In this document: piece after piece, positions 1 through 57,077 of the stretch
Layout: each line of letters begins with the position of its first letter
How positions within the stretch are numbered: position 1 is the first letter of the stretch
Virus record (IMG/VR): IMGVR_UViG_3300025000_000123
Coordinates: 1 to 57,077 of that record
DNA: 57,077 nucleotides
Origin: a virus
Direction: 5' to 3' (one strand)
Notes under the pieces: generated by a model
Seen by the model: only the letters and a program-made list of their open reading frames with translations
Told to the model about the DNA's origin: nothing
Database searches by the model: none
Translations under genes and position numbers: made by a program

Positions 1-83
1 CCGGCGACGGCTCCGGCGACGGCTACGGCGACGGCTACGGCGACGGCGACGGCGACGGCTACGGCTCCGGCGACGGCTCCGGC
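1..83. repeat. Terminal direct repeat: bases 1-83 are identical to 56995-57077 (contig-end overlap; circular or terminally redundant genome)
   Basis: Base-by-base comparison of both ends. The overlap also keeps the Gly-X repeat gene in frame across the junction. Confidence 0.85.
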
Positions 84-287
84 GACGGCTCCGGCTACGG
101 CGACGGCGACGGCTACGGCGACGGCTCCGGCTCCGGCGACGGCTACGGCTACGGCTCCGGCTACGGCTCCGGCTCCGGCTCCGGCTACGGCTCCGGCTCC
201 GGCTACGGCTACGGCTCCGGCTACGGCTCCGGCTCCGGCTCCGGCTACGGCGACGGCTACGGCGACGGCTCCGGCTCCGGCGACTGA
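1..287 (+). CDS. 3' part of the (Gly-X)n low-complexity protein (X = Asp/Ser/Tyr only), continuing from 56913..57077; stop TGA 285-287
   Basis: Frame 3 reads GGC-GAC/TCC/TAC hexamers without interruption up to TGA at 285. Absent from the ORF track only because it has no start inside the window start. Confidence 0.6.
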   Translation, partial: GDGSGDGYGDGYGDGDGDGYGSGDGSGDGSGYGDGDGYGDGSGSGDGYGYGSGYGSGSGSGYGSGSGYGYGSGYGSGSGSGYGDGYGDGSGSGD

Positions 288-359
288 TTTGTAACTTGAC
301 CAGTTTCAGCGTTTTGTACGAGCGCGCCTCGGCTCTGACAGGGGCACCAAGGAGGACGT

Positions 360-563
360 ATGAGAAAGAAGCAGTTACCCATCACCGACGAACAGGCAGC
401 CCGGTGTCTGGACGACTTCCCGCCGGAGTCGCAGGCGGACATCTGGGCGATCTACCTCGAGCAGCGCCAGACCGAGATCCCTGCGGAGTCCTGGCGGCGA
501 ACGATGATCGGGATTGTATTCCTGGTCCTGGTCCAGGAAGAGCAAAAGAAACGACTCAATTGA
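360..563 (+). CDS. Hypothetical small protein (67 aa), hydrophobic C-terminal segment
   Basis: ATG at 360 preceded by AAGGAGGA (349-356). Ends before the next RBS/start at 605. Confidence 0.55.
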   Translation: MRKKQLPITDEQAARCLDDFPPESQADIWAIYLEQRQTEIPAESWRRTMIGIVFLVLVQEEQKKRLN

Positions 564-604
564 CCGCGAAACAAGCCCGGCGCGGCGGGCAAAGGAGGAT
601 TGAA

Positions 605-2119
605 ATGCAGCTCAGTATTCTCGCAAAAACACCAGTTGGTCCTTTCCAGGAGCTCACCCTTAACTTCCCGACTGAGCCCGGGGTCTACGTGCTGAAAGGC
701 CGGAACGCCGCGGGCAAGACATACCTGCTCGAGCACGTTCTGCCGCGGGTTGGCGGGGAGTCTGTCGAGGTCGCCCCGATGGACGGCCACGAGCGCGGGG
801 AGGTGAGCCTGACCGAGGACGGGCAGACCTTTACGCTGCGTGTCGGGAAGCGGGTCACATCTGAGGGCAGCCTGCCGATCTACTTCCCGCGAGAGGAAGG
901 GAGGGCACTGGCGGAGCTCGTGAAGCCTACTGCGAAAGACGAGGGAGCTCGCGAGCTGGCCCGCATTCAGGCACTGTGCCGCCTGGCCCGCCTCGAGCCC
1001 ACTCCGGCACGTATGCAGGTGCTGGGGGGGCAGGATGTTCCCTTGCGCCCCGGTGCCACAATCGTGGACGCCGCCAAGGAGACCCGCAAGCGACTCCAAG
1101 AGCAGGCACGAGAGGCAGAGGCGTGTCAGCAGCGGGCAGCCGGCGAGGTGAGCGCCTTGACCCGGCATCTCGCTGATATCCAGCCACTCGAGCCCGTTGA
1201 CGTCGCAATCCCGGTGGAAGATGCCCAGGCAGAGGCCACCCGGCTTGAGCGGGACGCGGCAGTCATCCGGGCTCGGGCGGACCAAAGGCAGCAGGCAGAG
1301 CAGCGGCTCGAGAAGATCCGGGCGGGTAGGGCAGACCGTCCGGACTGCAGGGACATCGACGAGCGGATCTCCGGGCTCACGATAGCCCGCGACGAAGCAG
1401 CAGCCAAGATCGCCGACCTCGAGCGTACTCTGGCAGATCTCCGTCAGGCACAGGCAGCGAGGCTTGCAGACCTTCGCGCGAGCACGGATGAGCGGACCCG
1501 ACTCGATCGCGCGGCCGAACAGTGGGACCGCGAGCAGGCGGAACTGGAACAACCCCTCGACGGTCCGACCCCGGCAGAGGCGGACGAGGCGGAGATGGCG
1601 GCGCTCCAGGCTCGAAGTGAACTCGAGGCGGCACGGGCATACGCGGCATTCTGCGCGGCCGAGGAGCGCCAGAGTCAGGACCGGACCCGGCTCGAGGCAG
1701 AGCGGGAGGCGGCGGTCCAACAGCAGATGGCCGCCGAACAGCGGGCGGCCGACCTCCGGCAGGCAGCGGGGCAGGTCTGGGAGCGGCTTGCCGGACTGCT
1801 CGCCGACTCCGGGCTCGAGGACTTCGTGGTTCAGGACGGGCTGCTCAGCGTCCGGCTTGAGAACGGGCGGATCGAGCCGTATAACGACTCGCGGCTGTCG
1901 TTTGGCCAGCTGGTGTTCTTTGCGCTCCGGGCTGCGTTTGCGGCGATCGAGGGGGCGCAGAAGGGGAAGACGGTGTTTCTCATCCCTTGGGACTTCTGGT
2001 GGTCACTGGACCCAGACCATCAGCAGGAGGTGTGGACGCAATCACTCATTGTCGGGATCGCGCTGTACACCGAGGCGCCCTCATCCGGGGACATTCGGGT
2101 TGAAGCATGGGAGGGTTGA
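605..2119 (+). CDS. Rad50/SbcC/SMC-like ATPase with long coiled coil
   Basis: ATG 605 preceded by AGGAGG. Walker A GRNAAGKT near the N-terminus, about 300 aa of Ala/Glu/Arg/Gln-rich coiled coil, C-terminal signature-like LSFGQ and a hydrophobic-Asp Walker B-like FWWSLD. The track ORF from 296 is an upstream read-through. Confidence 0.7.
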   Translation: MQLSILAKTPVGPFQELTLNFPTEPGVYVLKGRNAAGKTYLLEHVLPRVGGESVEVAPMDGHERGEVSLTEDGQTFTLRVGKRVTSEGSLPIYFPREEGRALAELVKPTAKDEGARELARIQALCRLARLEPTPARMQVLGGQDVPLRPGATIVDAAKETRKRLQEQAREAEACQQRAAGEVSALTRHLADIQPLEPVDVAIPVEDAQAEATRLERDAAVIRARADQRQQAEQRLEKIRAGRADRPDCRDIDERISGLTIARDEAAAKIADLERTLADLRQAQAARLADLRASTDERTRLDRAAEQWDREQAELEQPLDGPTPAEADEAEMAALQARSELEAARAYAAFCAAEERQSQDRTRLEAEREAAVQQQMAAEQRAADLRQAAGQVWERLAGLLADSGLEDFVVQDGLLSVRLENGRIEPYNDSRLSFGQLVFFALRAAFAAIEGAQKGKTVFLIPWDFWWSLDPDHQQEVWTQSLIVGIALYTEAPSSGDIRVEAWEG

Positions 2120-2121
2120 GG

Positions 2122-2439
2122 ATGTTAATTCGTATCACGAGTTTGGATCGCGTTCTGGAACTTAGCAAGCAACACCGCGCCTGCTACGTGCCGAGGGCAG
2201 GCATTACACGACACACTCCGGCAATCGTGTTCTGCAACATGCCGATGCGGTGTGTGTCTGATTACATCAATCGCGGGATGCTATTCGAGAAAGTTGACGG
2301 TCAGTCCGACGATACCCGCCCGGACGTCAGGGAAGCGGAATACGAGCGGGCCAACTACGAGCGGGACCTGGCGAAGGACCGCCGGGCGACGGGGGAGAAT
2401 GGCTACCACGATTACGAAGTTGTCGATGGGGAGGGATGA
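2122..2439 (+). CDS. Hypothetical protein (about 105 aa)
   Basis: ATG 2122 with GGGAGGG 6 nt upstream (alternative ATG 2107). Overlaps the stop of the ATPase gene. Confidence 0.5.
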   Translation: MLIRITSLDRVLELSKQHRACYVPRAGITRHTPAIVFCNMPMRCVSDYINRGMLFEKVDGQSDDTRPDVREAEYERANYERDLAKDRRATGENGYHDYEVVDGEG

Positions 2440-2636
2440 TGAGCACCACACCAGACATCACCGCCCTGTCAGCGTATCGAGAGATGTGCTGCAATGTCGG
2501 GGCAATGGTCCGGGATGAGACGGCGGATCCGCGGGCGCTGAAGGTGCTCGACGAGGCGCTGCTTGAGTACCAACAGGCAGCACTTGTTGAGGGACCGATA
2601 CCCGAGTTCCCGTCGCTGGATGATGAGACGGATTGA
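2436..2636 (+). CDS. Hypothetical acidic small protein (66 aa)
   Basis: ATGA start/stop overlap with the upstream ORF. GGGGAGGG lies upstream. Confidence 0.5.
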   Translation: MMSTTPDITALSAYREMCCNVGAMVRDETADPRALKVLDEALLEYQQAALVEGPIPEFPSLDDETD

Positions 2637-2724
2637 CCTTGTCTGGGCGCCCATCGAGAGGGCGGCGCCCGATATACCCGCATTGACAGCGGGAAGTAGC
2701 CCTCGAGTTTTTTTGGAGGCAGCA

Positions 2725-4512
2725 ATGAGGTACACGGCAGCGTTTCTCTGTGCGGGCATGGGCGGCGGAGCTCGCGGTTTCCTCGACGCGCGGGCGGAGT
2801 GGAAGGGCATAGCCGGGCACTTTGAGATCGTCGGGGCGGTGGATGTGGATCCGGCAGCGTGCGAGGCATTTGAGCTGGTCACCGGCCATCCGTGCGCTCA
2901 GGCGGACCTGATGGACAGGGAGCAGTACCGTGCTTTCCACGGGCACGAGCCGCCGGCGGACTGGCACCAGGTGACCCCGGCAGACTTTCGGGAGTGGTTC
3001 GGGGATGATGCGCCAGATGTGATTTTTATTTCGGCGCCTTGCAAAGGTTTTTCGGCCCTGCTGCCGAGCGACAAAGCAGCCTCCGGGAAATACCAGGCCC
3101 TGAACCGGCTGGCGGAGCGCTGCATCTGGCTCACCCTCGAGGCCTGGGGCGACAAGGGGCCCAGGGCGATCCTGTTCGAGAACGTGCCCCGGATCCGGCA
3201 GCGCGGTAAAGACCTCCTGCAGACGCTCGAGGCCATGCTGAACGCTTACGGCTATGCCTGGCGCTCCTACGACCACGACGCCGGCGAGATCGGCGGGCTG
3301 GCTCAGCACCGGACCCGGTTCCTTGGCATAGCCCGGCACATCGCCAGGTGTCGGCCGATTATTTACCAGCCAGAGCGGCAGAGGCTGAAGAGCGTGGGCG
3401 AGGTGCTCTCGAGCCTGCCCATGCCCGACGACCCGGCAGCGGGGCCGATGCATCGCCTGCCCCGGTTGCAGTTGTTGACATGGATCCGTCTGGCGCTGAT
3501 TCCTGCCGGGAAGGACTGGCGAGCTCTTCAGCAAGTGGAGCGGGTCGAGTTCTACCAGCACCAGGCCCCTGGCTACGACGGCCAGACACTACGCGCCAAT
3601 GGCTACCGGGTGCAGGCGTGGAATGACCCGGCGTATACCGTGACCGGCGCCAGAGACCCGATCGCCGGCGGCCCGGTGGTGGCTGACCCCAGGCTCGAGC
3701 ATGAGCCACGACGAGGCGTGTATGCGGTGGTCCCGTGGTCGGAGACATCCGGCGCGGTGACCGGTGCCGAGGGTGTCGGCCGGTCCAATAGTATTACGGC
3801 GGTGGCAGATCCCCGCTTATCGACGCTTGACGGACGCTTCAAGGGGAAGTACCGCGTCATCGCGTGGAACGAAGCAGGCACCACGATTAGCGCGGGCATC
3901 TCCCTGGGTAGTAATGCAGCAGTCGTTGCCGATCCCCGGATTGGCATGGATTCCCCGAAGTTCAATCACGCCTACCGGGTTGGGCAGTGGACAGAACCTG
4001 GTGGCACGGTGGCAAGCGGCACGTCTCCCTCGAGCGGGGCGTCTATCGTCGCTGATCCCCGCCTCGGTTGCGCGCCTCGAGCGGGTGGATACGGGGTGCT
4101 CGACTGGGAGCAGACGGCCGGGACGGTGGCAGCATCTGCCGACGTCCACGCGGGTTGTGCAGCTGTGGCTGATCCCCGGTGGGCCATGACCGACCGTCCG
4201 GAGCCGCCGCCGGTCATCATCGCTGAGGATGGCACCTGGCACCGCCCGCTGACCACGCTCGAGCTGCTGGTGCTGCAGGGCTTCGATCCCCGGCGGTCAG
4301 ACGGCTCATACCTGGTGTTGCCGGGCAGATCCGATGCCCGGTGGCGGGAGCACATCGGGAATGCCGTTCCGCCTCCGACAGCGCGGGCGATAGCGGAGCA
4401 GATACTGATCACCCTGCTCATGGACGACGCAGGGACAACATTCCGACTGAGCACGGCGGCGCCGTGGGTGTCGCCGAATGAGGTCGGACAAGTGGCCATG
4501 TTTGGAGGGTAA
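2725..4512 (+). CDS. DNA (cytosine-5) methyltransferase with a five-fold repeated target-recognition region
   Basis: All canonical C5-MTase motifs are readable. I: FLCAGMGGG. IV: SAPCKGFS. VI: LFENVPRI. VIII: AQHRTRF. IX: PLTTLELLVLQGFDP. X: GNAVPPP. ATG 2725 is preceded by GGAGG. The upstream part of the track ORF reads a CTCGAG out of the Leu-Glu frame. Confidence 0.9.
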   Translation: MRYTAAFLCAGMGGGARGFLDARAEWKGIAGHFEIVGAVDVDPAACEAFELVTGHPCAQADLMDREQYRAFHGHEPPADWHQVTPADFREWFGDDAPDVIFISAPCKGFSALLPSDKAASGKYQALNRLAERCIWLTLEAWGDKGPRAILFENVPRIRQRGKDLLQTLEAMLNAYGYAWRSYDHDAGEIGGLAQHRTRFLGIARHIARCRPIIYQPERQRLKSVGEVLSSLPMPDDPAAGPMHRLPRLQLLTWIRLALIPAGKDWRALQQVERVEFYQHQAPGYDGQTLRANGYRVQAWNDPAYTVTGARDPIAGGPVVADPRLEHEPRRGVYAVVPWSETSGAVTGAEGVGRSNSITAVADPRLSTLDGRFKGKYRVIAWNEAGTTISAGISLGSNAAVVADPRIGMDSPKFNHAYRVGQWTEPGGTVASGTSPSSGASIVADPRLGCAPRAGGYGVLDWEQTAGTVAASADVHAGCAAVADPRWAMTDRPEPPPVIIAEDGTWHRPLTTLELLVLQGFDPRRSDGSYLVLPGRSDARWREHIGNAVPPPTARAIAEQILITLLMDDAGTTFRLSTAAPWVSPNEVGQVAMFGG

Positions 4513-4514
4513 TC

Positions 4515-4745
4515 ATGAGCCTCGGATCGATTACGGTGACCCGGCTTGAGTGGACGTGTCCGGCATGCGGCACTCTCCACATCTGGCACTGGCATCCATG
4601 TGATGCTCAGTATGGCGACGTGATCCTGATGGTGTGCGAGGCGTGCCCGATTCAGACGAGGGTGCGCCTCGCAGACAATTGGGACAACGGCGGGATAAAA
4701 GGGGGTGTGTGTTCGACAACCGGGCGGAACTCGAGTCCTGGGTAG
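4515..4745 (+). CDS. Small zinc-ribbon protein (76 aa)
   Basis: GGAGGG RBS. CPAC...CEAC cysteine pairs. Confidence 0.6.
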   Translation: MSLGSITVTRLEWTCPACGTLHIWHWHPCDAQYGDVILMVCEACPIQTRVRLADNWDNGGIKGGVCSTTGRNSSPG

Positions 4746-4782
4746 TCCCGGGCTCGCAGTGGCCGCCGTTTTTGAGGCAACA

Positions 4783-5019
4783 ATGACAGATCACCTCACA
4801 GTCTACTTCACGATGATCTGCCACACTGAGACCGGATGGTTCCGCGTTGGCAATGCGTATAGTTCGCGACAGTGCGCCAAATCATGGTTACCTTTTGCGC
4901 GCAAGGCATGGCGACGTCTGCCCGGGAAGGTGGAACAATGCAAGCTGGATTTCGTGGACGGAGTGATAACCGACGACTCGCGAAAACTCTTGAGCGATCG
5001 CTATAACATGGAGGCCTGA
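4783..5019 (+). CDS. Hypothetical protein (78 aa)
   Basis: ATG 4783 after GAGG. The track start at 4705 overlaps the previous gene. Confidence 0.5.
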   Translation: MTDHLTVYFTMICHTETGWFRVGNAYSSRQCAKSWLPFARKAWRRLPGKVEQCKLDFVDGVITDDSRKLLSDRYNMEA

Positions 5020-5020
5020 C

Positions 5021-5257
5021 ATGCTCAGAGACAACTACAGACCTGTGATATGGGGCGGAGGGCCACGGACGCAACATACCGGGTGGGTATGGGCGACGTG
5101 TGACACGTGTGGCGTCGAGTCAAAGTGGATCCATGGTTCGGTCCGCGTGCTCGAGGAAGTCGAGGTCAGGCGGCGCGAAAGTCGCGTTGCACTCGAGGCT
5201 GCCGGCTGGACGATCTCGCCGGACAAAGCGACCTGCCCGGCACACACAGAGATATGA
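5021..5257 (+). CDS. Hypothetical protein (78 aa), CxxC...C motif
   Basis: GGAGG 6 nt upstream of ATG 5021. Confidence 0.55.
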   Translation: MLRDNYRPVIWGGGPRTQHTGWVWATCDTCGVESKWIHGSVRVLEEVEVRRRESRVALEAAGWTISPDKATCPAHTEI

Positions 5258-5281
5258 ATTCTGTTGAAGGAGTGAGAGACG

Positions 5282-5518
5282 ATGCGTTCTAACTGCTTGT
5301 TGGCGGCCGTATTAATAAAGAGACGGCTTAAATGTGGACGGATACGGATACTCTGGCGCGGGCTTCCGGGCTGGCTTCCACATTTCGTGCTTGAACTGCC
5401 GGATGGATGGTCCATCCATTATTGCGGACGGGCAAAGGGGCACAGCAGTCTGTTGGATCATGTGTGGTTTCATGGCAGACTCAAAGTGGATTGGTTCGGC
5501 GCACGCAAGGAGGCATGA
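5282..5518 (+). CDS. Hypothetical protein (78 aa)
   Basis: AAGGAG upstream of ATG 5282. Last gene of the rightward operon, convergent with 5555..6040. Confidence 0.5.
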   Translation: MRSNCLLAAVLIKRRLKCGRIRILWRGLPGWLPHFVLELPDGWSIHYCGRAKGHSSLLDHVWFHGRLKVDWFGARKEA

Positions 5519-5554
5519 CAATGCGCAGACGATATCACTGCCATTTTAGAGGTG

Positions 5555-6040
5555 TCACCAACACTGATCCAACCAGTAGCAATACTGGTCGGTCGTAGTG
5601 ACGGTGCACTCCGGGTCCAAACAGGAAACGTACTGCTCGCAGAATAGGACCTCGACACAGTCGTCATCCGTCGAGCCTGGATCGTCGTAATAGACGTGTT
5701 GTTGCCCCGGGGCGGGGCTCCCGGACTGAGTGGGTCCTCCCGGAGGGGCACCGTAGATCGTCCGGGTGGCGGAGGTCCGGTAGCACTCCGTCGAGCAGGT
5801 CTCCCCCTCGTAGCCGTACCCCCACAGTTTCGGGGTGTACTCGCAGACTTTCACGCAGGCCTGATCCCCCATTTCCGATGGGAGCGTGGTACACGCCACA
5901 TAGACCGTCCCGGTGTCGTCCTGATACGTGGTGCACTCGGTGTCACCACCGTGGAACGGGTCATCCCATTGTTTTTCCATGGCCTCCGCTGGCCCCCCAA
6001 TCGCCAGCCAGAGGAACAGCAAACCGAACAAGTAGCGCAT
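5555..6040 (-). CDS. Secreted cysteine-rich protein (161 aa, about 12 Cys)
   Basis: N-terminal signal-peptide-like MRYLFGLLFLWLAIGGPAEA. The mature part is Cys/Tyr/Asp/Thr-rich. AAGGA RBS. Confidence 0.7.
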   Translation of the reverse strand: MRYLFGLLFLWLAIGGPAEAMEKQWDDPFHGGDTECTTYQDDTGTVYVACTTLPSEMGDQACVKVCEYTPKLWGYGYEGETCSTECYRTSATRTIYGAPPGGPTQSGSPAPGQQHVYYDDPGSTDDDCVEVLFCEQYVSCLDPECTVTTTDQYCYWLDQCW

Positions 6041-6100
6041 ATCGATCCTTTCTTTGTGCCCCGAAGGGCGGTTATGCCCGATGTCGGGCGGGAACCCTAA

Positions 6101-6595
6101 TCACCTCACCCGGATGTCGGGCAGGACACAGAACCCGAGCAGCCCCTTCGCCACGCGGGCCTTCACCTCCAGACAGACCCGATGCCACGTGGACACCGAC
6201 TCAAACAATGCGGAGATCAGTAGCCGGGCATCATCCTCGGACATCCCGGTGACGACCGCACCATCGTCCGTAAACTCGAGCGACCCGCCGATCTCTGCGA
6301 ACGACGTCACCAGGATCCGGGCATCCCGGGCGTCGAGCACAAGGTCCCGGACGGGAATCAGAACCGGTTTCGGCGCCGGGGTATTCCGGACGGCGGAGTC
6401 GATCGCGGTCACGACCGCCTCAGCGATGGCGATCGCGTGCTCCGGTGACTCCGCCCGAACGTAAATCGAATGCGCGCCGCGCCCGTCGGGCGTGAGTCTG
6501 AGTCCGGTGATACTCCAGTCGGGAAACTCGCCGACCGGCGTGTAATGTTTCGCGGCCCATGGGCGGGTCAGCTCGCGGGAAACGTGGAAATGCAT
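6101..6595 (-). CDS. Hypothetical protein (164 aa)
   Basis: ATG 6595 preceded by AAGGAG. The longer track ORF (to 6679) overlaps the upstream gene. Confidence 0.6.
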   Translation of the reverse strand: MHFHVSRELTRPWAAKHYTPVGEFPDWSITGLRLTPDGRGAHSIYVRAESPEHAIAIAEAVVTAIDSAVRNTPAPKPVLIPVRDLVLDARDARILVTSFAEIGGSLEFTDDGAVVTGMSEDDARLLISALFESVSTWHRVCLEVKARVAKGLLGFCVLPDIRVR

Positions 6596-6606
6596 AATAC
6601 GACTCC

Positions 6607-7104
6607 TTACGGGATCTCCAACCATGGGATCCCGGATTGAGATACCGCCCAACCGAACAACTCGTCGGGCGACTCGCAATACTCAGCCATAGAGGGGACC
6701 GCCCCCTCGATATACAGGGGCAGATCCGACCATGCCTCGATCATTTCCAGTGTGCCGTCGAGGTGTTCGGACACCACGTTGGCGAGTGCTGCCCGGAACT
6801 TAGCCTGCTTTTCTTTTTTTTTAATCCGGGCCATCCGGGCGGCCATCTCGGAACCGGATACCAACCGCCACCCCCGGCGGGTGAACGACGTAGCAAGCAA
6901 CGCCTTCAACTTGTCCAGGTTGGGCTCTACGATTGCGAGCCCCAACGCCCATTGGATGCGGACCTCACCCACCCCCAGATCGGGATGACTCTCGACCCGG
7001 ATCGACAGTCCCTCGTGCCGATCCGCGAACCATAGTAATTCCTTCGCCGCGGGCTCGAAAACGTCCCGCGGAATGTTGGTGTAAACGATGGTCTTCATTG
7101 TCAT
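6607..7104 (-). CDS. Hypothetical protein (165 aa) containing an A9 run encoding KKK
   Basis: ATG 7104 six nt after AAGGAG. Confidence 0.6.
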   Translation of the reverse strand: MTMKTIVYTNIPRDVFEPAAKELLWFADRHEGLSIRVESHPDLGVGEVRIQWALGLAIVEPNLDKLKALLATSFTRRGWRLVSGSEMAARMARIKKKEKQAKFRAALANVVSEHLDGTLEMIEAWSDLPLYIEGAVPSMAEYCESPDELFGWAVSQSGIPWLEIP

Positions 7105-7236
7105 GCTCTCTCCTTTCACACCCCAGCCCGTTCTCCGGGCGATGGGGCAACAAGATCGGCGCCGCGCCGGATTGCGTCGGCGACCGACCGGACCAACATA
7201 AGACCGTTTAGGCTACAGCCGCCGCTGGCTGCAGCC

Positions 7237-7590
7237 TCATCCACGAGCGCGGCGTCGAACGCTTGCAAGTCGCGCACGATATCCGTTGTACGCCGCGAGA
7301 CGCGCCTCCTCGATCTTCGCGGGGGTGATCTCCCCCTCATAGCGGTGCCACGATTGCACCGCTACATTTGCGCGCCCCACCAGCGTGACGTGAATCACGC
7401 CAGAAGACAGTTCGATGCGGCTCTCCAGCGCCTCACCGCATGAACTGTCACACATGATCAGGGGAGGCACCCGGATGTAGGGCGCCCCATCAAGGGACAA
7501 GCAGAGTTCGGGGTAGAACCGATCCCCGTCTACCATCCCATCCCTTAATTCGCGCCGCCACTGCTGCGCGGCATCGATCAGTGCCTGCAT
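7237..7590 (-). CDS. Hypothetical protein (117 aa); 3' end uncertain
   Basis: GAGGAG RBS before ATG 7590. The Arg-rich C-terminus and the overlapping frame 7116..7340 (more protein-like, ends next to the following RBS) suggest a frameshift or a second small gene. Confidence 0.45.
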   Translation of the reverse strand: MQALIDAAQQWRRELRDGMVDGDRFYPELCLSLDGAPYIRVPPLIMCDSSCGEALESRIELSSGVIHVTLVGRANVAVQSWHRYEGEITPAKIEEARLAAYNGYRARLASVRRRARG

Positions 7591-7652
7591 CTTTTTCTCC
7601 TCTGCCCGGCATCACCGGGCTCACAAATGTATTCCTCTCGATGGCGGACGTG

Positions 7653-8327
7653 TCACGGAAGTGTCACGGTGATCGTCCGGCGCCGAACGTACGCACGGAT
7701 CGTCTCGATCTGCGCGACGATTACGGGGACCGTCTCTGAGGCCATCCGCGCCGACCACCCATCCGGCAGGCGATCCTCGTCCCGCTCGGTCCCGTAATCA
7801 AAGCTGACACCGTCTGGCTGGATCTCAAAACCCGCCCGGGTCCACATCCCGGCCGGGAACGGTGTGGTGCACAACAGCAGACCATCACCCCGGACCACTC
7901 CCGGGCAGAACGACTTATGGATGAGGATCAAGCGGTTGTCTCCGCCGTCCACGATGGCGACGGATCGCCCGTCGGCCAGCGTCTCCCGACAGATCCGCGG
8001 GATGTCGAGTGGATTGTGCACCGTGGCCACGAACTGATACACACCCGGGTCCGGACGGACCATTGCGCCGTCCGCTATCTGCCGGAGATTGTCTAAACGG
8101 GCTTTCTCCGCCGTCACAGCGGCCTCGATCGCCGCGCGGATCTCCTCCATCCGTTCTGGCGTCGTGGACGCCCAGATGCACGGGCGATCCCCGAACCGGT
8201 TAGGCGAATTGCCGAACGAATCAATAACCGCGCACACTTTATTTTCGAGCCATGCCGGGTCAAGGCCCGGCTCCTCTGCGGTGATGGGCATGCGGTCGTA
8301 ATGTGGGTTCCCGAGTGCGATTCTCAT
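7653..8327 (-). CDS. Hypothetical protein (224 aa)
   Basis: AAGGA RBS, long ORF in the operon orientation. Confidence 0.6.
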   Translation of the reverse strand: MRIALGNPHYDRMPITAEEPGLDPAWLENKVCAVIDSFGNSPNRFGDRPCIWASTTPERMEEIRAAIEAAVTAEKARLDNLRQIADGAMVRPDPGVYQFVATVHNPLDIPRICRETLADGRSVAIVDGGDNRLILIHKSFCPGVVRGDGLLLCTTPFPAGMWTRAGFEIQPDGVSFDYGTERDEDRLPDGWSARMASETVPVIVAQIETIRAYVRRRTITVTLP

Positions 8328-8434
8328 GTGATTTTTCCTTGAATTTGCTTTCCGCCCGGTCGCCCGGGCTCGTTGTTTCTCCGACCGTTGCGGGATCTCC
8401 GCCGAAGCGGGGATCCGGTAACGAGGCCGGTGGG

Positions 8435-8749
8435 TCAGGATGCGAATGCCCGGGCGATCCGGGCGTCCATCTCACGCCACGCGGCCAACGCCGCTGTGCC
8501 GAACCGCTCGCGAGCAACGTCCTGCTCGTCGAACATTCGGGCGTAGGGATGCCCGGGAGTCTGTGCCGCAATCGAAAAGAACGGTTCCGTCCACGGGGCC
8601 GTGCAGTCCCGGACTGTCTGTCTCCACTCCTGATACCGCCTTTCGGCGGCGGTGATTTCCACGTCTCGGTCGTAGGCCAGGGACGACTCGAGGAACGAAA
8701 GGTGGCCTCTGTGTGCTGATTCGAACCGCTGGAATGTTGTCTGATCCAT
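8435..8749 (-). CDS. Hypothetical protein (104 aa)
   Basis: AAGGAG RBS before ATG 8749. Confidence 0.6.
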   Translation of the reverse strand: MDQTTFQRFESAHRGHLSFLESSLAYDRDVEITAAERRYQEWRQTVRDCTAPWTEPFFSIAAQTPGHPYARMFDEQDVARERFGTAALAAWREMDARIARAFAS

Positions 8750-8841
8750 GGTGTCTCCTTGTTTGTTTATCGTCTCCTCAACCCGCCAATGGCGGGTTCA
8801 AGAGGCGGCCCCTCCGAAGAGGGGCATGGCCTGGGGTGGTA

Positions 8842-9231
8842 TCAAACGTCAACCGGGACGAACGAAGACGACGCAGGCCCGAACCCGTGGACGGCGAACT
8901 CACCGTGGTGCCCCAGGAGGCGAAGAGTGCGGACCACTGCCGCGTATACGTCGGCGTAGTCCGCGATGACGTTGATGATGTCCTCCTGATGCCCACGGTC
9001 GATCCGGCTCAGTGCCTTGTCGCGCCGGGCCAGGAGCATGTCGGACTCGGCACGCCACGCGGCGCCGGGCCATGTGTCGCAGTACTCGCAGGACTGCCCG
9101 TCGATGTACCCGCATCCGTGTGGGACCCGTTCGGGCTCGCGGGCTGCGATGTCGTGGTAGTAGCAGGCTTTCGCCAGGGACTGCGCCTGGCGGAGGATGG
9201 AATGAGAATGAGAGGATGACTGGGTGATCAT
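8842..9231 (-). CDS. Hypothetical protein (129 aa), CGY...CEYC motif
   Basis: Internal ATG 9231 chosen. The region upstream of it in the track ORF is Arg/Lys junk. Confidence 0.5.
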   Translation of the reverse strand: MITQSSSHSHSILRQAQSLAKACYYHDIAAREPERVPHGCGYIDGQSCEYCDTWPGAAWRAESDMLLARRDKALSRIDRGHQEDIINVIADYADVYAAVVRTLRLLGHHGEFAVHGFGPASSSFVPVDV

Positions 9232-9336
9232 GGGGAACCCTTTCTTTTTCGGTTTGAACTGCCGCACCTCGCGGCGAGCTCGTGGAAACAACTACGCCAA
9301 CAACAACCCGCGGTAGAACGGGACCAGCCGGTGAAA

Positions 9337-9612
9337 TTATTTGTCCTGCCAGACCTTCCGTCCACCCCGGCGGACCACAATTTTCTTCTCGCCGGTCGGC
9401 ATGTCCTGCCGACTCGCTACCGTACCCACCGGGTACTCGTTGGCGGGCTGCAGGGGAAGGTTATTGTCGCTGATTGTGCCGTGCCCGGCGCGGCCGATAA
9501 AAATGTGGTTCCAGAGTCCGCCCGTGATCATCATCGTCTCTCTCCAGGTTCCGGCCGCCTCATTGCGACCGTTCATGAGTAGTATTATATCCCCAGCGGG
9601 TATGGATGTCAA
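9337..9612 (-). CDS. Hypothetical protein; start uncertain (TTG at 9612 or an internal ATG)
   Basis: ORF in the operon orientation, no clear RBS. Confidence 0.4.
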   Translation of the reverse strand: MTSIPAGDIILLMNGRNEAAGTWRETMMITGGLWNHIFIGRAGHGTISDNNLPLQPANEYPVGTVASRQDMPTGEKKIVVRRGGRKVWQDK

Positions 9613-9641
9613 CAGAAAAGAATACCCACTGGTGATTTATT

Positions 9642-9845
9642 TTACTTCGCCCGTTCCGCCCGGATCCGGGCGATCTCCGCCTCCGAGATCAGGGGCTGGC
9701 GGGGCTCCAGGATCTCGCCTTCCGGGGTCCGGGCGTAGTCCAGTTTAAGCGGCTCCAACCGTTTCCGGTCCGCCAGCTGGCGGATTGAGTTTTTGTCCGC
9801 GAACCCGAGTTCTCGGGCCGCCGCACGAACTGAATACCATCGCAT
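9642..9845 (-). CDS. Small helix-turn-helix DNA-binding protein (excisionase/MerR-like fold)
   Basis: GGAGG RBS. N-terminal WYSVRAAARELGFADKNSIRQL resembles an HTH. Confidence 0.55.
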   Translation of the reverse strand: MRWYSVRAAARELGFADKNSIRQLADRKRLEPLKLDYARTPEGEILEPRQPLISEAEIARIRAERAK

Positions 9846-9961
9846 CGTGTATCCTCCGGTTATCCCCCTCTGGAGATATACCCGAGGGGGAAGGGGAGGT
9901 CAAGGGGGAATGAGGGTCAATCCGCCAACTCCCTCACCCACTCGGGCCAGAGAGATTCCGG

Positions 9962-10177
9962 CTATACGTCCACGTGCCACCAGCGGACCCGCCCTTTCAG
10001 CCACGACAGGCAATCTGCCTTCGTGGCCGCGGTCCCTGCGCTGGCCAGGATAGACTCAGCCATACGGGCTTCCCGCTGGGTTTCGGTCCGGAACTCCCGG
10101 ACCTTCCCGCCGAGCTGGGGGACCCGGAGGAAGGTGTAGAACTCGGGTGCCTCGAAATCGTCAGTGTCGTCGTACAT
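9962..10177 (-). CDS. Hypothetical protein (71 aa)
   Basis: AGGGAAAGAG RBS before ATG 10177. Confidence 0.5.
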   Translation of the reverse strand: MYDDTDDFEAPEFYTFLRVPQLGGKVREFRTETQREARMAESILASAGTAATKADCLSWLKGRVRWWHVDV

Positions 10178-10190
10178 CTCTTTCCCTTTC

Positions 10191-10499
10191 CTATTCCGTC
10201 CACCACCGGAACGCGATCGTCCGGCGGGCGGTGCTGTTCTCGATCACCCCCTCCCCTTCGGGGGAGGCGTTCACGAGCGCCACCACACGGGCGAGCTCGT
10301 AGGAATCGAGGCTGCCTGTGGTGCAATACCCCAGGTCCTCGATCCGCTCCTCAACACTGCCGGTCCTGAGCGGGGTGAACCCCGTCTCACCAGCACTCCG
10401 GGCCAGTCCGTCCCGATTCCCGCCGAGCCACTGTGCGGAGTCGATGCGGGCTTGCACCCCGGCGGACGACGTGTTAGCCACTTTCTGAATTACCTTCAT
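10191..10499 (-). CDS. Hypothetical protein (102 aa)
   Basis: GGAGGAG RBS before ATG 10499. Confidence 0.55.
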   Translation of the reverse strand: MKVIQKVANTSSAGVQARIDSAQWLGGNRDGLARSAGETGFTPLRTGSVEERIEDLGYCTTGSLDSYELARVVALVNASPEGEGVIENSTARRTIAFRWWTE

Positions 10500-10578
10500 G
10501 ATTTTCTCCTCCCCGGATTACCCGCCGGGGTCGGGTCATGAATCATGCCCCACCGCACGATTCGCGGCGGGGAGGGGA

Positions 10579-49297: not shown

Positions 49298-50414
49298 TTT
49301 TGGCGCTCCCCTCTGGGCGCCAACCGAGCGCCTGGTAGTAATCCTCTTCCGTCATTGACGGCCCATTGAGCCGCCCTGTCGGCGTGTATTCCGGCGTCCG
49401 CTGCAGACCCTCGTAATACCGGGGATCGGTGCCCTTCTGTACCCGTTCCTGGCGTTCGTAGGTGTCGATCGCCCGCTGGATCAGACTCATGTTCGCAAAG
49501 AACTTTCGCGGGGTGTGGCTGCCGCTCGAGTAGACCCATTGCCCCTTCGGCTCTGAGCCCATCATCACAATGCCCTTGATCGCCGCCTCCAAGTCGTCCG
49601 CCGTGTAGGGGGTGGCCTGAACCGCGACCATTGCCCGGATGTCTTCCACCTGGATTACCTTCGCCCGCGGGAAAGACTGCCGATAGGTATCCCAGAGGGC
49701 GACCACTCCCGGGAGCCCGTCCTGCTCCTTTGGCTTGAGTTTCGGTATTAGCTCGAGCCACATCTGAGCGTCCTCTCTTCCGCTGAGGCAGGTAGGGACC
49801 TGCTCAGGTTCTGGTGGGATGTTTTTTCGTCTGGAGGTTTTTGATTTTTCCTCCGACGAGGTTTCCACCCCCCGGGGGGTAGGGGGGTCTTCTTTTTGTA
49901 CCTGTAACTGTACCTGTATGTGTTCTTCTGTACCTGTAGATCTGTAGGAAGAATTGATCGCGCGCGCGAGGGATCGTCGTGGATCTTTTTTGGATCTTTC
50001 TTGGTCCGTTCTTGGATCGATCGTGGTCTTTTCTTGGTCCGTTCTTGGATCGATCTGCTCCTCTGTTTCCGCGGTAGTATCGGATCCGCTGGTCTTTTCT
50101 TGGTCCGTTCTTGGATCGATCGTGGTCTTTTCTTGGTCCGTTCTTGGTCTTTTCTTGGATCGGTTTTGGATCGATCTTGGTCCGCTATCCTTTTTCGTCT
50201 CGTCCTGATAGTCATTCATCAGGCGCCTTACCTTGCCCCTGCTCCAGTGCCAGCGGTCAGCAAGACGGCGTTCCGTCCAGAAATCGAGCTCGCCAGCAGT
50301 GGCCATAAAGCCGAACTCAGCCATGGCCACGAACTCAGAGACAGAATCGGTATAGGGCACCTGTTGTAGCAGATGTCGGCGTGCAACAGAGGCTGGCACG
50401 GGATACCATTTCAT
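49290..50414 (-). CDS. Replication initiator (lambda O-like arrangement) with an 11-aa repeat linker encoded by the iterons
   Basis: Lies directly upstream of the loader and helicase. N-terminal winged-helix-like region. Central repeats IDPRTDQEKTT. Confidence 0.55.
   Translation of the reverse strand: MKWYPVPASVARRHLLQQVPYTDSVSEFVAMAEFGFMATAGELDFWTERRLADRWHWSRGKVRRLMNDYQDETKKDSGPRSIQNRSKKRPRTDQEKTTIDPRTDQEKTSGSDTTAETEEQIDPRTDQEKTTIDPRTDQERSKKDPRRSLARAINSSYRSTGTEEHIQVQLQVQKEDPPTPRGVETSSEEKSKTSRRKNIPPEPEQVPTCLSGREDAQMWLELIPKLKPKEQDGLPGVVALWDTYRQSFPRAKVIQVEDIRAMVAVQATPYTADDLEAAIKGIVMMGSEPKGQWVYSSGSHTPRKFFANMSLIQRAIDTYERQERVQKGTDPRYYEGLQRTPEYTPTGRLNGPSMTEEDYYQALGWRPEGSAKNG
49999..50183. repeat. 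Origin-like iterons: TCTTGGTCCGTTCTTGGATCGATC at 49999, 50032 and 50098, plus a degenerate copy from 50131 (33-bp phasing)
   Basis: Read directly. The flanking 10-mer TGTACCTGTA occurs 3 times (49897, 49909, 49929), and a C6G6 palindrome lies at 49868-49879. Confidence 0.7.
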
Positions 50415-53049: not shown

Positions 53050-53053
53050 CGAG

Positions 53054-53790: not shown

Positions 53791-54138
53791 ATGGATCAGC
53801 CCCCACGGGAAACGATCTCCTACGCTCTGAGCCTGTTGGATCGGGCTGCGCTCAAAATGGCGCGCGACCGGCGGTTTTTCGTTGTGGAGCGTGAGACAGA
53901 CACGTCCACACCGGTTGCGCTCACAATGGTGTTTGAGATCACAGACCCTGGTCCGCAGGTGCTGACCGGGTGGAACGAGGCGCCGGAGCACGTCCAGTGC
54001 TCGTTTGTGCTCGCGTTCGACGGGGCGGGCACGGTGATCCGAAGCGCACCGATGGCGGCTACACTGTTGGGCCTCGAGGATGAGGATGAGCTGGCGGAGA
54101 TGGCTATCGGGCACTATTACGGGAGGATGGCGGCATGA
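53791..54138 (+). CDS. Hypothetical protein (115 aa)
   Basis: GAGGTG RBS before ATG 53791. ATGA coupling downstream. Confidence 0.55.
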   Translation: MDQPPRETISYALSLLDRAALKMARDRRFFVVERETDTSTPVALTMVFEITDPGPQVLTGWNEAPEHVQCSFVLAFDGAGTVIRSAPMAATLLGLEDEDELAEMAIGHYYGRMAA

Positions 54139-55076
54139 GGCTTGACCGTATCGGCGTAATTGGAGCCTCCCAGGTCGCCGCATGTCTCGGGCTGTCGCAC
54201 TGGCAGACCCCGGAGCAGGAGCGACAGAACATCCTGACCGGGCGGTGGGACACTCCGCCGCGGAAGACGACGGATCCGAAATATCTCGGGCAGAAACTCG
54301 AGCCCGCGTGCCTGGGACTTCTGCAGGATTGGCTGATAGAGCACGGCTTCGGCTCAGAGGGGCAGATCGAGGTGGTGCCATGGGATCTGTCCGTGCCGGA
54401 GATGGAGCGGACCAACGGCCGCCGGCCATCGCTGGTCCACCCTGACATCCCCTGGTTGCGGGCGACCCCGGACGCACCGGTCCGGATGGGCCAGATGCAG
54501 GCTCTGGCTCAATCCAAGGTGCCGACCCGAGGGCAACTCGGAGATACGCCAGAGCGCTGGGGGGACGCGGACGAATCCCGGCCAATGGAAGACCTCGACA
54601 GGTGGGGGATTCCGAGGATTTACGCCGTGCAAATGACGGTGGAGCTCGGCGTGGCGCGGGCGTGTGATTGGCCCGTCGAGTGGAACTTTGCCCCGGTTCT
54701 GGGTTTGCCCGGGCGCTTTTTCGATGTCTGGCCGCTCGAGTTCTCTCAGGCGGCGTTTGACGGACTGCTCGAGCGCCTGGTGCCCTGGTACGAACGGCAC
54801 ATCCGAGACGGCGAGCCTTGCCCCCCGGCGACGGTCCAGGAGGCGGTAAGCCGTCACCCTCGTAAACCGGTTGCTCGGGTGGACGCTGAGACAGAGCAGC
54901 TGTTACGGCGACGGGTGACCACCCAGGACGAGCTGAAGCGGCTCGAGGCGGCGCTCGAGCGGATGGACATGCAGATTCTGGCCGCCGTCCAGGGCGGCGC
55001 GGTGATTTACGGCTCATCGGGGCGGATTGGGACAATGACCGGCCGGAGGTTTCGGCCTGATAACAAATGGAGGTAG
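54135..55076 (+). CDS. YqaJ-type viral recombinase exonuclease (lambda Exo-like)
   Basis: N-terminal IGASQVAACLGLSHWQTP matches the YqaJ signature (GxSxxxxxxGxSxWxTP). Confidence 0.8.
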   Translation: MRLDRIGVIGASQVAACLGLSHWQTPEQERQNILTGRWDTPPRKTTDPKYLGQKLEPACLGLLQDWLIEHGFGSEGQIEVVPWDLSVPEMERTNGRRPSLVHPDIPWLRATPDAPVRMGQMQALAQSKVPTRGQLGDTPERWGDADESRPMEDLDRWGIPRIYAVQMTVELGVARACDWPVEWNFAPVLGLPGRFFDVWPLEFSQAAFDGLLERLVPWYERHIRDGEPCPPATVQEAVSRHPRKPVARVDAETEQLLRRRVTTQDELKRLEAALERMDMQILAAVQGGAVIYGSSGRIGTMTGRRFRPDNKWR

Positions 55077-55078
55077 GT

Positions 55079-56188
55079 ATGAGTGACGACATTTTTGATG
55101 CCGAACCGATTGAGGACCGAGTGGCAGCACTATCGGGTGAACCGCCGCTTGCTTTGGCGCTGCGGAACGGTGGGCAGATTCAGCAACTGCGCACGGACTT
55201 TGTGACCGCGCTGCAAGTGGCACAGCCCCGAGATATCCGGCTCGTCACGAAGCGGGCGATGGATGAGGCGGAACTCCTGGCGGAGCGCGGTTTCTACTCG
55301 TTCCCCGTGAAGGGCGGCCGGGTGGAAGGGGGCTCAATCGAGCTCGCCATGTGCCTGCATAGAGCGTGGGGCAACTGTCACGCGGATTGTGACGTGGTGG
55401 AGGCGGCAGAGAACCATGTCACGCTCAGGGCGCGCTTCATCGATCTGGAGAGCGGTGCCACGGTGGCCCGCGCTTTCCGAGGTTACGTTGCGCCGGCTCC
55501 CGCCAAGTTTGCAAGCGACCCGGCGCAGAGAGAGCGCTGGTACTCGATGCAGTTTGAGGCGAACCAGAGCAAAGCAATCCGCAACGTAATCCTTCGCGGC
55601 GTGCCGGCCTGGCTGCGAGACGAGGCATTTCGGCGCGCGAAGGAAAGCGCCGGAAAATTACTCCTGAAGGGCACGAGCCTTCCGGAGGCGCGGGCGAAAA
55701 TAGTGGACTGGTATCGCAGCATAGGGAAGTCGCAGACGGACCTTGAGCGGCTGCGGGATCGGCCCATGGGGAGCTGGACAGCCAATGACTGCGTTGAACT
55801 CAAGTCGACCTGGACGGCTATCAAGGTCGGCGATATTTCTGTGGAAGAGGTATTCGCCTCCTTCGAGGATGACACGCCCGCCAAGCCCAAGCAGACTGGC
55901 CCCACCCCCGCCGACCGTGCCCGAGTTCAGGCCCAGGCACAGACGGAGCAACCGCTGGCGCCAGTCCAGGAGACTCAGCAGGCGATGACAGCTGAGCAGC
56001 TGGAACAGGAGTATGGGTCAGCGATCGCGGCTCTGGGTGTCTGCCAGAGCCGGGATGACCTCAAGGATCTCCAGCGCTCCCTGCCCCGGGGCGGGACAGT
56101 TGAGCAGAAGAAAGCCCTGACCGAGGCGTTGAAATCGGCGAACGCACGGTTCAGCAACGGCAATAACGGCCAGCAGGCGCTGGTGTAG
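55079..56188 (+). CDS. Single-strand annealing protein candidate (Rad52/Sak-like)
   Basis: Synteny with the exonuclease. VEGGSIELAMCLHRAWGN resembles the Rad52 YIEGxxxIxLANxxFGxNGW segment. GGAGG RBS. Confidence 0.5.
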   Translation: MSDDIFDAEPIEDRVAALSGEPPLALALRNGGQIQQLRTDFVTALQVAQPRDIRLVTKRAMDEAELLAERGFYSFPVKGGRVEGGSIELAMCLHRAWGNCHADCDVVEAAENHVTLRARFIDLESGATVARAFRGYVAPAPAKFASDPAQRERWYSMQFEANQSKAIRNVILRGVPAWLRDEAFRRAKESAGKLLLKGTSLPEARAKIVDWYRSIGKSQTDLERLRDRPMGSWTANDCVELKSTWTAIKVGDISVEEVFASFEDDTPAKPKQTGPTPADRARVQAQAQTEQPLAPVQETQQAMTAEQLEQEYGSAIAALGVCQSRDDLKDLQRSLPRGGTVEQKKALTEALKSANARFSNGNNGQQALV

Positions 56189-56196
56189 GAGGGTTC

Positions 56197-56916
56197 ATGG
56201 ACTTCAAGGCAGTGACGACAGGCACCGAGGACAACCGATTGCGGGCAGCGGCCGAACGCATCATTCAGGAGATGATCGCTGCTGTGGAGGCGGACAAGAA
56301 CGGCTACCTGTCCACTCCGTCCGTTCAGGATGTGGAGCGCGCCGCCCATGACCTGGTATTGGAACTCATGGGGATCATCGGCGTGGACGTCTGTTTCAGT
56401 CTGACGGGCGCAAGGCCAGAACAGCCTCGAGCGGGCCTTTCACCCGCTCGAGGTGATGAAGAGGTCTCATCCACCCTGCAGAGAGGAGGTGTGCCATGCA
56501 CCCGCCGGCCAAAGACCGGCACGCCGGGGAGACATCCCGGCCGGAGCGCCTCGAGCCGAATACAGGGGCACCAGCCAAAACCGCCCGGTGGCACGGGCAC
56601 TACATGGAGTAATAGAATGGACCAACTCATTGTTGTCGCAGGTGATTGTGGTGTATACGTCGGGATGGCAGAGGGCGGCGCGGCCACTCTCGGTGCCGAC
56701 GGTCGTGTGACATTGAGACGTGCGCGCCATCTGCGGCGCTACTATGTAGCCGGGCGGACCGGCGACGGATCCGCCGGCGATCTGGCCGTGCGGGGTCTGG
56801 ACCCATCAAGCCCATCCATTGCCGATGTGGTGCCGGGTACTACCGTATTGCTTGGCGTTCGCCGGGCGTTCGATGTGGAAGAAACCGTTCAGGCTTCTTT
56901 CGGGGTACTGTCATGA
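56197..56916 (+). CDS. Open frame of 239 aa that probably fuses two genes (56197-about 56400 and 56617-56916) through a non-coding-looking middle
   Basis: GGAGGG RBS at 56197. The middle is Arg/Pro/Gly junk, contains a perfect hairpin and two CTCGAG read out of the Leu-Glu frame. Second ATG at 56617. Confidence 0.4.
   Translation: MDFKAVTTGTEDNRLRAAAERIIQEMIAAVEADKNGYLSTPSVQDVERAAHDLVLELMGIIGVDVCFSLTGARPEQPRAGLSPARGDEEVSSTLQRGGVPCTRRPKTGTPGRHPGRSASSRIQGHQPKPPGGTGTTWSNRMDQLIVVAGDCGVYVGMAEGGAATLGADGRVTLRRARHLRRYYVAGRTGDGSAGDLAVRGLDPSSPSIADVVPGTTVLLGVRRAFDVEETVQASFGVLS
56425..56453 (+). other. Perfect 11-bp-stem hairpin CCTCGAGCGGG-cctttca-CCCGCTCGAGG
   Basis: Read directly. No U-tract follows. 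Confidence 0.7.
56496..56612 (+). CDS. Possible small protein (38 aa), below the track cut-off
   Basis: AGAGGAGG 6 nt upstream of ATG 56496. Its single CTCGAG is read as Leu-Glu, unlike in the overlapping long frame. Confidence 0.35.
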   Translation: MHPPAKDRHAGETSRPERLEPNTGAPAKTARWHGHYME

Positions 56917-57077
56917 GCGGCTCCGGCGACGGCTACGGCTCCGGCGACGGCTACGGCGACGGCTACGGCGACGGCGACGGCGACGGCTACGGCTCCGGCG
57001 ACGGCTCCGGCGACGGCTACGGCGACGGCTACGGCGACGGCGACGGCGACGGCTACGGCTCCGGCGACGGCTCCGGC
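56913..57077 (+). CDS. 5' part of the (Gly-X)n protein (MSGSGDGYGSGDGYGDGYGDGDGDGYG...), runs off the window end and resumes at base 1/84
   Basis: ATG 56913 overlaps the upstream stop (ATGA). Exactly 55 codons lie before the window end, all Gly alternating with Asp/Ser/Tyr. Confidence 0.6.
   Translation, partial: MSGSGDGYGSGDGYGDGYGDGDGDGYGSGDGSGDGYGDGYGDGDGDGYGSGDGSG

Follow-up and report, generated by a model that had tools for sequence, protein, structure and literature searches.

Introduction

Among the described systems, the closest to the case reported here is HIP1 (GCGATCGC) of cyanobacteria, a palindrome that is enriched in all reading frames, is conserved beyond codon effects and follows a kilobase-scale periodic distribution of 10-90 kb (PMC5861425). 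The presence of HIP1 tracks cognate orphan methyltransferases (PMC4390886), and GATC is over-represented in haloarchaea encoding the matching orphan methyltransferase (PMC6471742). Here, we describe the iteration of the six-base palindrome CTCGAG along a virus genome of 57,077 nucleotides (IMG/VR record IMGVR_UViG_3300025000_000123, positions 1 to 57,077; this whole stretch is referred to as the window). The enrichment is a DNA-level effect that is confined to this hexamer, does not depend on the reading frame and reshapes the encoded proteins.

CTCGAG resembles HIP1 in being a short palindrome that is over-represented genome-wide, irrespective of frame and outside coding DNA as well, to a degree that codon usage does not account for, and in that its abundance is maintained more than its individual sites. 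A first-pass annotation of the window, made from the letters alone, had asked whether it is HIP-like. The anatomy justifies the comparison, whereas the fold enrichment is lower than that of HIP1 (3-7x as against 15-300x, although up to about 38x was found in a metagenome-assembled genome, MAG, of the Deinococcales). Moreover, HIP1 is an 8-mer and CTCGAG a 6-mer, CTCGAG occurs in a phage and in non-cyanobacterial lineages, and its cognate methylase is so far only a candidate. The spacing of CTCGAG is exponential over 57 kb, a length too short for kilobase periodicity of the HIP1 type. Haloarchaeal GATC is also an enriched palindrome but differs in motif and taxa, and for CTCGAG, again, the cognate enzyme is only a candidate.

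Other iterated words share some of these properties. The DNA uptake sequences of Haemophilus (uptake signal sequence, USS) and Neisseria (DNA uptake sequence, DUS) are, like CTCGAG, dense, lineage-specific and mostly genic, and they distort peptides; Findlay and Redfield reportedly found in 2009 that USS-encoded peptides are over-represented. However, USS and DUS are 9-12 nt long, non-palindromic and act via the competence machinery of the cell, and it is not obvious why a lytic phage would need uptake signals. Over-represented short words also serve as Chi-type recombination or 'self' signals, through which DNA is protected or processed in a given host; a benefit from them is plausible for a phage that encodes its own RecT/SbcC-like module. 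Known Chi sites are asymmetric and skewed between the strands, whereas CTCGAG is palindromic; to our knowledge, no palindromic Chi has been described. Finally, CTCGAG belongs to the same class of words as those subject to restriction-site avoidance, the six-base type II palindromes, but with the opposite sign.

Results

The window contains 136 CTCGAG sites, one per 420 bp, which makes CTCGAG the commonest hexamer of the genome. Base composition predicts 18.9 sites, and the first-pass estimate of about 135 sites, one per about 420 bp where some 20 were expected, was accurate. Markov models of order 1, 2 and 3 predict 25.3, 26.7 and 50 sites, respectively, the ratio to the order-1 expectation being 5.4x. 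At order 4, the maximal order, the expectation rises to 106 and the z-score is 5.5, which is still the highest of any hexamer, and CTCGAG ranks at the top at every order. As a further null model, synonymous codons were shuffled within each gene, keeping the proteins and codon usage. Applied to all 4096 hexamers, this shuffle identified CTCGAG as the extreme outlier (z = 15.3). The sites are spaced near-exponentially with a mean of 416 bp (Kolmogorov-Smirnov test against the exponential, p = 0.72), and the spacing analysis of the 57-kb genome revealed neither periodicity nor clustering. The window represents a complete phage genome, assembled as a circle with a terminal overlap of 83 bp. Because near-identical sequence was recovered from at least 7 independent groundwater metagenome assemblies, including PRJNA268031 and PRJNA292723, the excess of CTCGAG is not an assembly artefact.

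The reading frames of the sites were assigned with 76 gene calls from a codon-usage model, which were checked against the database gene calls of the same genome. Over positions 1 to 57077 (no strand assigned), 98 sites are read CTC-GAG (Leu-Glu), 14 lie in frame +1, 17 in frame +2 and 8 are intergenic. The synonymous shuffle predicts 37.4±4.7, 2.1 and 2.6 sites for frames 0, 1 and 2 (maxima of 500 shuffles 51, 7 and 7), and codon permutation predicts 22, 2.3 and 2.7. Relative to the synonymous shuffle, in-frame sites are about 2.6-fold and out-of-frame sites about 6-7-fold in excess. Intergenic sites exceed their expectation of 1.8 by 4-fold; one example is a pair of abutting sites (CTCGAGCTCGAG) at 11835-11846 (no strand assigned), in an apparently non-coding stretch. 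In the out-of-frame sites, CGA and TCG-AGx contexts are used far above chance: of 19 CGA codons following xCT, 14 are succeeded by G, compared with 34% in other contexts.

The Leu-Glu frame accounts for 72% of all sites and about 76% of the genic ones. The first-pass annotation had described the sites as almost always in frame, about 9 of 10; a majority is indeed in frame, but this figure was too high, as 31 genic sites are out of frame. At least 20 of these lie in strongly coding DNA, such as the genes for the methyltransferase, tail proteins, portal and DnaB, according to a coding check that was run in windows and was independent of the gene list. The register of a site is therefore unreliable as a test of coding versus non-coding DNA, the use for which it had been recommended.

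The excess extends to the protein level. Leu-Glu occurs 146 times, against 93.9±9.0 after within-protein permutation (maximum 124 in 1000), a 1.56-fold inflation, whereas Glu-Leu is not inflated (86 against 94). Together with the excess in all frames, this bears out the earlier suggestion to the extent that an effect at the DNA level, for which selection had been proposed, shapes the protein sequences. CTCGAG density peaks in the replication and recombination genes. The SbcC/AAA_23-like ATPase gene (605-2119, plus strand) carries 8 CTCGAG sites, all read as Leu-Glu; the count of 11 Leu-Glu in its 504-aa product was correct, but the expectation of about 3 had been set too low and is 5.6.

We considered a proteome or translation artefact, in which Leu/Glu-rich proteins with a CTC/GAG bias or a codon-pair preference inflate in-frame CTCGAG. 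The share of 72% in the Leu-Glu frame and the commonness of GAG and CTC as codons agree with it. However, the protein-preserving shuffle gives 37 in-frame sites where 98 are observed, out-of-frame and intergenic sites are enriched as well, Leu-Glu is inflated without Glu-Leu, and CTC accounts for 76% of the Leu codons that precede GAG, compared with 32% of all Leu codons. The artefact is thus refuted as a sufficient explanation and is, in our estimate, the least probable of all those discussed here, although it may contribute a share of the frame-0 sites. Two outcomes had been named beforehand as refuting the proposed enrichment, namely similar counts in such a shuffle and an equal enrichment of related hexamers such as CTGGAG. 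Neither was found, the shuffle yielding 37 against 98 and CTGGAG being depleted.

The preference is confined to the hexamer. For Leu before GAG, CTC and CTG are used 92 and 9 times, against an overall CTC:CTG ratio of 0.78, where CTG is the commoner codon. Before GAA the numbers are 5 and 7, and before other codons starting with G the proportions are 0.29 and 0.45, CTC retaining its usual share of 29%. For Ala, Pro, Thr, Ser and Arg, the choice between G-ending and C-ending codons is hardly altered, if at all, before GAG, and for Val and Gly the shift towards C is small. In the synonymous shuffle, CTGGAG is among the most depleted hexamers (20 against 50 expected, 2.5-fold).

This depletion invites the converse explanation that CTCGAG is a by-product of word avoidance: CTGGAG (BpmI/GsuI-type), a Shine-Dalgarno-like GGAG or a universally disfavoured nnG-Gnn junction would be avoided, turning CTG-GAG into CTC-GAG. 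In its favour, CTG-GAG read in frame is 4-5-fold below expectation (9 against about 41), several words of the form xGGA are too rare, and some dense viral contigs, for example L126, have zero CTGGAG/CTCCAG, so that the mechanism may operate there. On the other hand, CTCCAG, the same word on the opposite strand, is not depleted (17 against 15.8), nor is out-of-frame CTGGAG; there is no avoidance of GCG-GAG, CCG-GAG, CGG-GAG or ACG-GAG, and no shift for Leu when another G-codon follows. Generic nnG-Gnn or Shine-Dalgarno-like avoidance is ruled out by the other amino acids before GAG and by Leu before other G-codons, and restriction avoidance of CTGGAG is ruled out because its depletion is confined to the Leu-Glu frame and CTCCAG is undepleted. 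Moreover, avoidance cannot yield an excess of roughly 6-7-fold in frames +1 and +2 or of 4-fold between genes. We therefore regard it as a very improbable account of the window.

A shorter or a longer motif was also rejected. The excess of TCGA (445 against 362) equals that of CTCGAG, and CCCGAG, CTCGGG and CCCGGG are not enriched, which excludes an enriched TCGA core or CYCGRG. An extended motif or a dispersed repeat of the REP or MITE type was dismissed because the flanks have no consensus and only the GC bias of codon positions; GCTCGAGC occurs 26 times, with about 28 expected for independent flanks.

Other palindromes behave in the opposite way. GTCGAC (the SalI site) occurs 3 times (19593, 43253 and 55804) where the synonymous shuffle predicts 27, and Val-Asp is encoded by GTG-GAC 32 times and by GTC-GAC once. 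Strong depletion also affects GGGCCC, CGTACG and every palindrome that contains CTAG. This implies that classic restriction pressure accompanies the CTCGAG excess. Among the shorter words, CCGG is modestly but significantly over-represented in the protein-preserving shuffle (648 against 526, z = 8.7) and TCCGGA about 2x, while AGCT, GTAC and GGCC are depleted.

The depletion of CTAG, together with the presence of a C5 methyltransferase gene, would also be in line with a neutral repair or mutation bias. Very-short-patch-like repair associated with m5C at CTCGAG would convert T:G mismatches to C:G and thereby create sites out of transition neighbours. In E. coli, Vsr/Dcm repair is said to raise CCWGG and to lower CTAG, a view attributed to Bhagwat and McClelland in 1992. 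However, the transition neighbours are undepleted in the window (CTTGAG 17 against 11.4, CTCAAG 10 against 10.4, TTCGAG 19 against 17.6 and CTCGAA 13 against 16.4), the main donor CTGGAG requires a G-to-C transversion, and a Vsr-like gene was not recognised among the proteins scanned. Such a bias is unlikely, if somewhat less so than word avoidance.

In the comparison with related phages that the first-pass annotation had proposed, two distant relatives proved enriched, L008 with 19 CTCGAG sites against 3.9 expected and L009 with 39 against 10.7, whereas a more distant relative by TerL, L010, has 0, and still more distant relatives have none either. L009 has little in common with the window beyond the terminase, yet is enriched. 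Searches of IMG/VR and JGI metagenomes with TerL or the capsid protein returned nothing or relatives of <=40% identity, in which the trait is absent. Megablast and blastn of the window and of dense IMG/VR contigs found no close cultured relative of the phage; the sole match to a cultured phage among the dense IMG/VR contigs queried was the capsid of L126, which is distantly similar to that of actinophages.

Orthologues were compared for three genes of L008 at 52-63% identity, including the ATPase, and for the TerL of L009 at 52-53%. Five CTCGAG sites are common, 11 are found only in the window and 14 only in a relative. At conserved Leu-Glu positions of these approximately 50%-identical orthologues, sharing of CTCGAG is about that predicted by independent usage. 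Sites that are not shared often stand opposite IE, VE, FE, LA, LQ, LK or LT in the other genome; they have therefore turned over, partly by amino-acid replacement, while the density was kept. The CTCGAG excess is a trait of this phage lineage, with turnover of the individual sites.

To place the window among other genomes, we used three samples. A pattern scan of IMG/VR for three CTCGAG within short gaps, in which the matches listed represent a lower bound, returned among those matches many unrelated contigs of high GC content whose site density equals or exceeds that of the window, e.g., with 55-61 sites in 11-12 kb. A control sample of 97 GC-rich viral segments (from IMG/VR loci L252-L369), drawn independently of CTCGAG, has a median observed/Markov-1 ratio of 0.85. 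In this sample, 36-37% of the segments strongly avoid CTCGAG, and the ratio is at least 3x in 11-12% and at least 5x in 4%, compared with 5.4x for the window. CTCGAG also has the largest maximum enrichment of any palindrome in the 97 segments. Among GC-rich viral contigs, CTCGAG is bimodal, and CTGCAG behaves similarly. The dense contigs L126 and L044 contain very many GAGCTC and CGAGCTCG words and zero CTGGAG, so that the phenomenon may take more than one form among dense viral contigs.

The third sample, a scan of GTDB, gave, among the matches listed, largely high-GC taxa with a moderate enrichment. Conspicuous among them are two MAGs of the Deinococcales with 50 and 61 CTCGAG per 8 kb (6-7.6/kb) at 51-56% GC, which corresponds to 18-38x over Markov-1, with the proviso that these cellular loci were found by a search needing three clustered sites and their densities are biased upward. 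The denser locus (L174, positions 1-8000 of JAYVRX010000084.1; 61 sites in 8 kb) is chromosomal, with genes for RecG, alkaline phosphatase and GNATs. Its sites are distributed 23/14/6 over the frames, against 2.9/0.9/0.5 expected, a further 18 lie in 2 kb outside the open reading frames used, and Leu-Glu occurs 31 times against 14.9. The other (L222, positions 1-8000 of JANOWZ010000604.1) carries a phage-type integrase; for this locus the density was determined without splitting the frames. The Deinococcales loci constitute an iterated palindrome on the scale of HIP1 outside cyanobacteria. The trait is not general to Thermus/Deinococcus, as T. thermophilus pTT27 is enriched only about 2x and D. 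radiodurans MP1 is depleted, nor to actinophages (Arthrobacter phage Constance, 14 against 13-20). Myxococcus phage Mx8 was rejected as a carrier; it lacks the enrichment, and the window contains no homologue of its Mox methylase. In the searchable literature, we found no account of an excess of CTCGAG in prokaryotes or phages, the one report retrieved being unrelated and concerned with the honey bee.

Two segments inside the genome lack the enrichment. The first is a 'cold' module of about 12 small ORFan genes (5258-11834, minus strand), which has 3 CTCGAG in 6.6 kb; 3 of its 11 Leu-Glu pairs are CTCGAG, as codon usage predicts, and its genes have no Pfam matches. It contains 5 of the 7 GTGCAC sites of the genome (binomial p ~3e-4 in a post-hoc test). 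The module is probably a recently acquired, compositionally foreign segment. The second is a recombinase-like gene at the RecT position (55067-56188, plus strand), which has 3 Leu-Glu pairs and 0 CTCGAG. It shares 24% identity only with the gene in the equivalent position of L008 and may be a replaced allele that has not yet been ameliorated. The pattern of both segments fits mosaic segments that arrived recently and have yet to acquire the word biases of the lineage.

In connection with methylation, the first-pass annotation had listed a C5 methyltransferase, a Dam-like methyltransferase and a Lar-like protein, with unequal outcome. The C5 cytosine DNA methyltransferase (2731-4512, plus strand) stands, with a match to Pfam PF00145 and 42% identity to the phiCTX ORF41 type. 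Its gene contains 7 CTCGAG, 3 of them out of frame (3408, 4029 and 4076). The Dam-like enzyme (42441-43472, minus strand) is reduced to a D12-class N6-adenine methyltransferase-like protein with a partial match to PF02086 (E = 2e-8, N-terminal residues 38-104 only). The Lar (restriction alleviation)-like assignment (14707-15366, plus strand) is a possible one, with a match below the Pfam cut-off; this gene has 3 Leu-Glu, none encoded by CTCGAG. A methylase-linked explanation of the excess is circumstantial and unproven, albeit attractive by its likeness to HIP1 and haloarchaeal GATC (PMC4390886, PMC5861425, PMC6471742).

These genes bring in the main rival to the explanation that we favour below, a phage-autonomous function. 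A protein of the phage itself, such as the C5 methyltransferase, the D12-like methyltransferase or another DNA-binding or DNA-processing protein, would recognise CTCGAG for epigenetic marking, nuclease protection, replication/recombination or packaging. Besides the two methyltransferase-like genes and the possible Lar-like protein, the enrichment of relatives with a common replication/recombination module and the peak of density in the replication/recombination genes speak for it. Against it, unrelated phages and cellular chromosomes are enriched without detectable homologues of the phage proteins, phages with a homologous C5 methyltransferase are enriched only 2.2x (phiCTX) or not at all (Marinobacter PS3), and L009 is enriched though it shares little beyond the terminase. 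On balance, we consider a phage-autonomous function doubtful, although it is far from negligible.

The remaining gene content is that of a phage, comprising terminase, portal, Mu-like protease, tail proteins and a CHAP lysin as structural and lysis genes. For replication and other functions, the genome encodes DnaB, a DnaC-like protein, the SbcC/AAA_23-like ATPase beside the RecT-position gene, and a DUF5131 protein; no tRNA genes were found in the 57,077-bp window. The ATPase encoded at 605-2119 is not a terminase. Its sole relative has a weak AAA_23 (SbcC/RecF-like) match and lies beside RecT and DUF5131 genes, which indicates a conserved recombination module extending across the circular junction (605-2119 and 54135-56188). 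The ATPase family is very rare, with 2 clusters in 5.8 billion proteins.

The genome also contains several repeats. A hexanucleotide tandem repeat (GGC-GAC / GGC-TAC / GGC-TCC) of about 70 copies occupies 56924-57071 and 2-281, continuous over the circular junction, and encodes a Gly-Asp/Tyr/Ser dipeptide-repeat protein segment. It accounts for the excess of the words GGCTAC and GCTACG, and nearly all differences among the strain assemblies fall within it. A second repeat array lies at 49980-50184 within the gene immediately upstream of the DnaC-like and DnaB genes; its 11-bp unit (TTCTTGGTCCG / TTCTTGGATCG) is present about 18 times and is arranged in a 33-bp super-repeat. This array looks like origin iterons inside a lambda-O-style initiator gene, and its copy number gives an apparent difference of about 99 bp between the assemblies L001 and the window. 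Right after the C5 methyltransferase gene, at about 4789-5524, the database gene calls show three tandem 78-aa genes and one 76-aa gene, which may be paralogues.

Discussion

We consider a host-lineage-linked, HIP-like maintenance of CTCGAG density to be the most likely explanation, to which we give a little better than an even chance. According to this explanation, CTCGAG would be an iterated palindrome that is selectively maintained or otherwise actively driven, the word itself being favoured rather than the dipeptide or the codon pair. The maintained quantity would be the number of sites along the genome, not their given positions. Sites would arise by synonymous recoding of CTG-GAG to CTC-GAG, in the form of CT-CGA-G and C-TCG-AG, which place rare codons in the other two frames, and via amino-acid replacements creating Leu-Glu, and they are lost and regained over time. 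The pressure would presumably belong to the host lineage in which the phage group replicates, because unrelated GC-rich phages are enriched, two Deinococcales MAGs are enriched more strongly, and one mosaic module lacks the trait. The cold module can serve as evidence for a lineage effect because two independent word statistics, CTCGAG and GTGCAC, differ in it.

By analogy with HIP1, the most likely molecular basis would be recognition of the palindrome by a dimeric DNA-modifying or DNA-processing factor, candidate readers being an XhoI-isospecific methyltransferase or a recombination/repair protein. Dense sites would mark the DNA as 'self' or improve its maintenance. A methylation or processing mechanism, like the host-lineage origin, is inferred; the hexamer-specific enrichment in all frames, its effect on proteins, the turnover of sites and the recurrence in other genomes are shown.

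Several observations weigh against a host-lineage origin of the pressure or against its likeness to HIP1. The nearest phage homologues of the C5 methyltransferase belong to phages of Proteobacteria, not of Deinococcota. No homologues of the window proteins, including both methyltransferases, were detected in the other CTCGAG-dense contigs, of which about 10 kb per contig were sampled. Closely related strains show no polymorphism in CTCGAG sites, all their differences lying in tandem repeats. The enrichment in phages is modest, 3-7x compared with the 15-300x reported for HIP1 (PMC5861425), and the densities of the cellular loci carry the upward bias of the search by which they were found.

A more specific version of host-lineage maintenance, which we put forward only tentatively, is that CTCGAG represents a second, independently evolved 'identity' palindrome of the HIP class. 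It would be used by non-cyanobacterial lineages, in the extreme by some Deinococcales, and copied by their phages. An XhoI-isospecific orphan methylase or a recombination/repair factor would read it, and the phages would gain by mimicking the motif density of the host, at the price of rewriting about 50 dipeptides in 57 kb.

Phages are expected to purge six-base palindromes, not to gather one at the cost of rare codons and amino-acid changes. The occurrence of CTCGAG in about 4-12% of GC-rich viral contigs and in two Deinococcales MAGs suggests that the phenomenon is recurrent. With a compact 57-kb genome, about 100 excess sites, an internal unenriched control and enriched relatives, the phage is a much simpler system than a cyanobacterial chromosome, and its genome could be used for asking what iterated palindromes are for. 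If CTCGAG indeed tracks the host lineage, its density could help to predict the hosts of uncultured phages.

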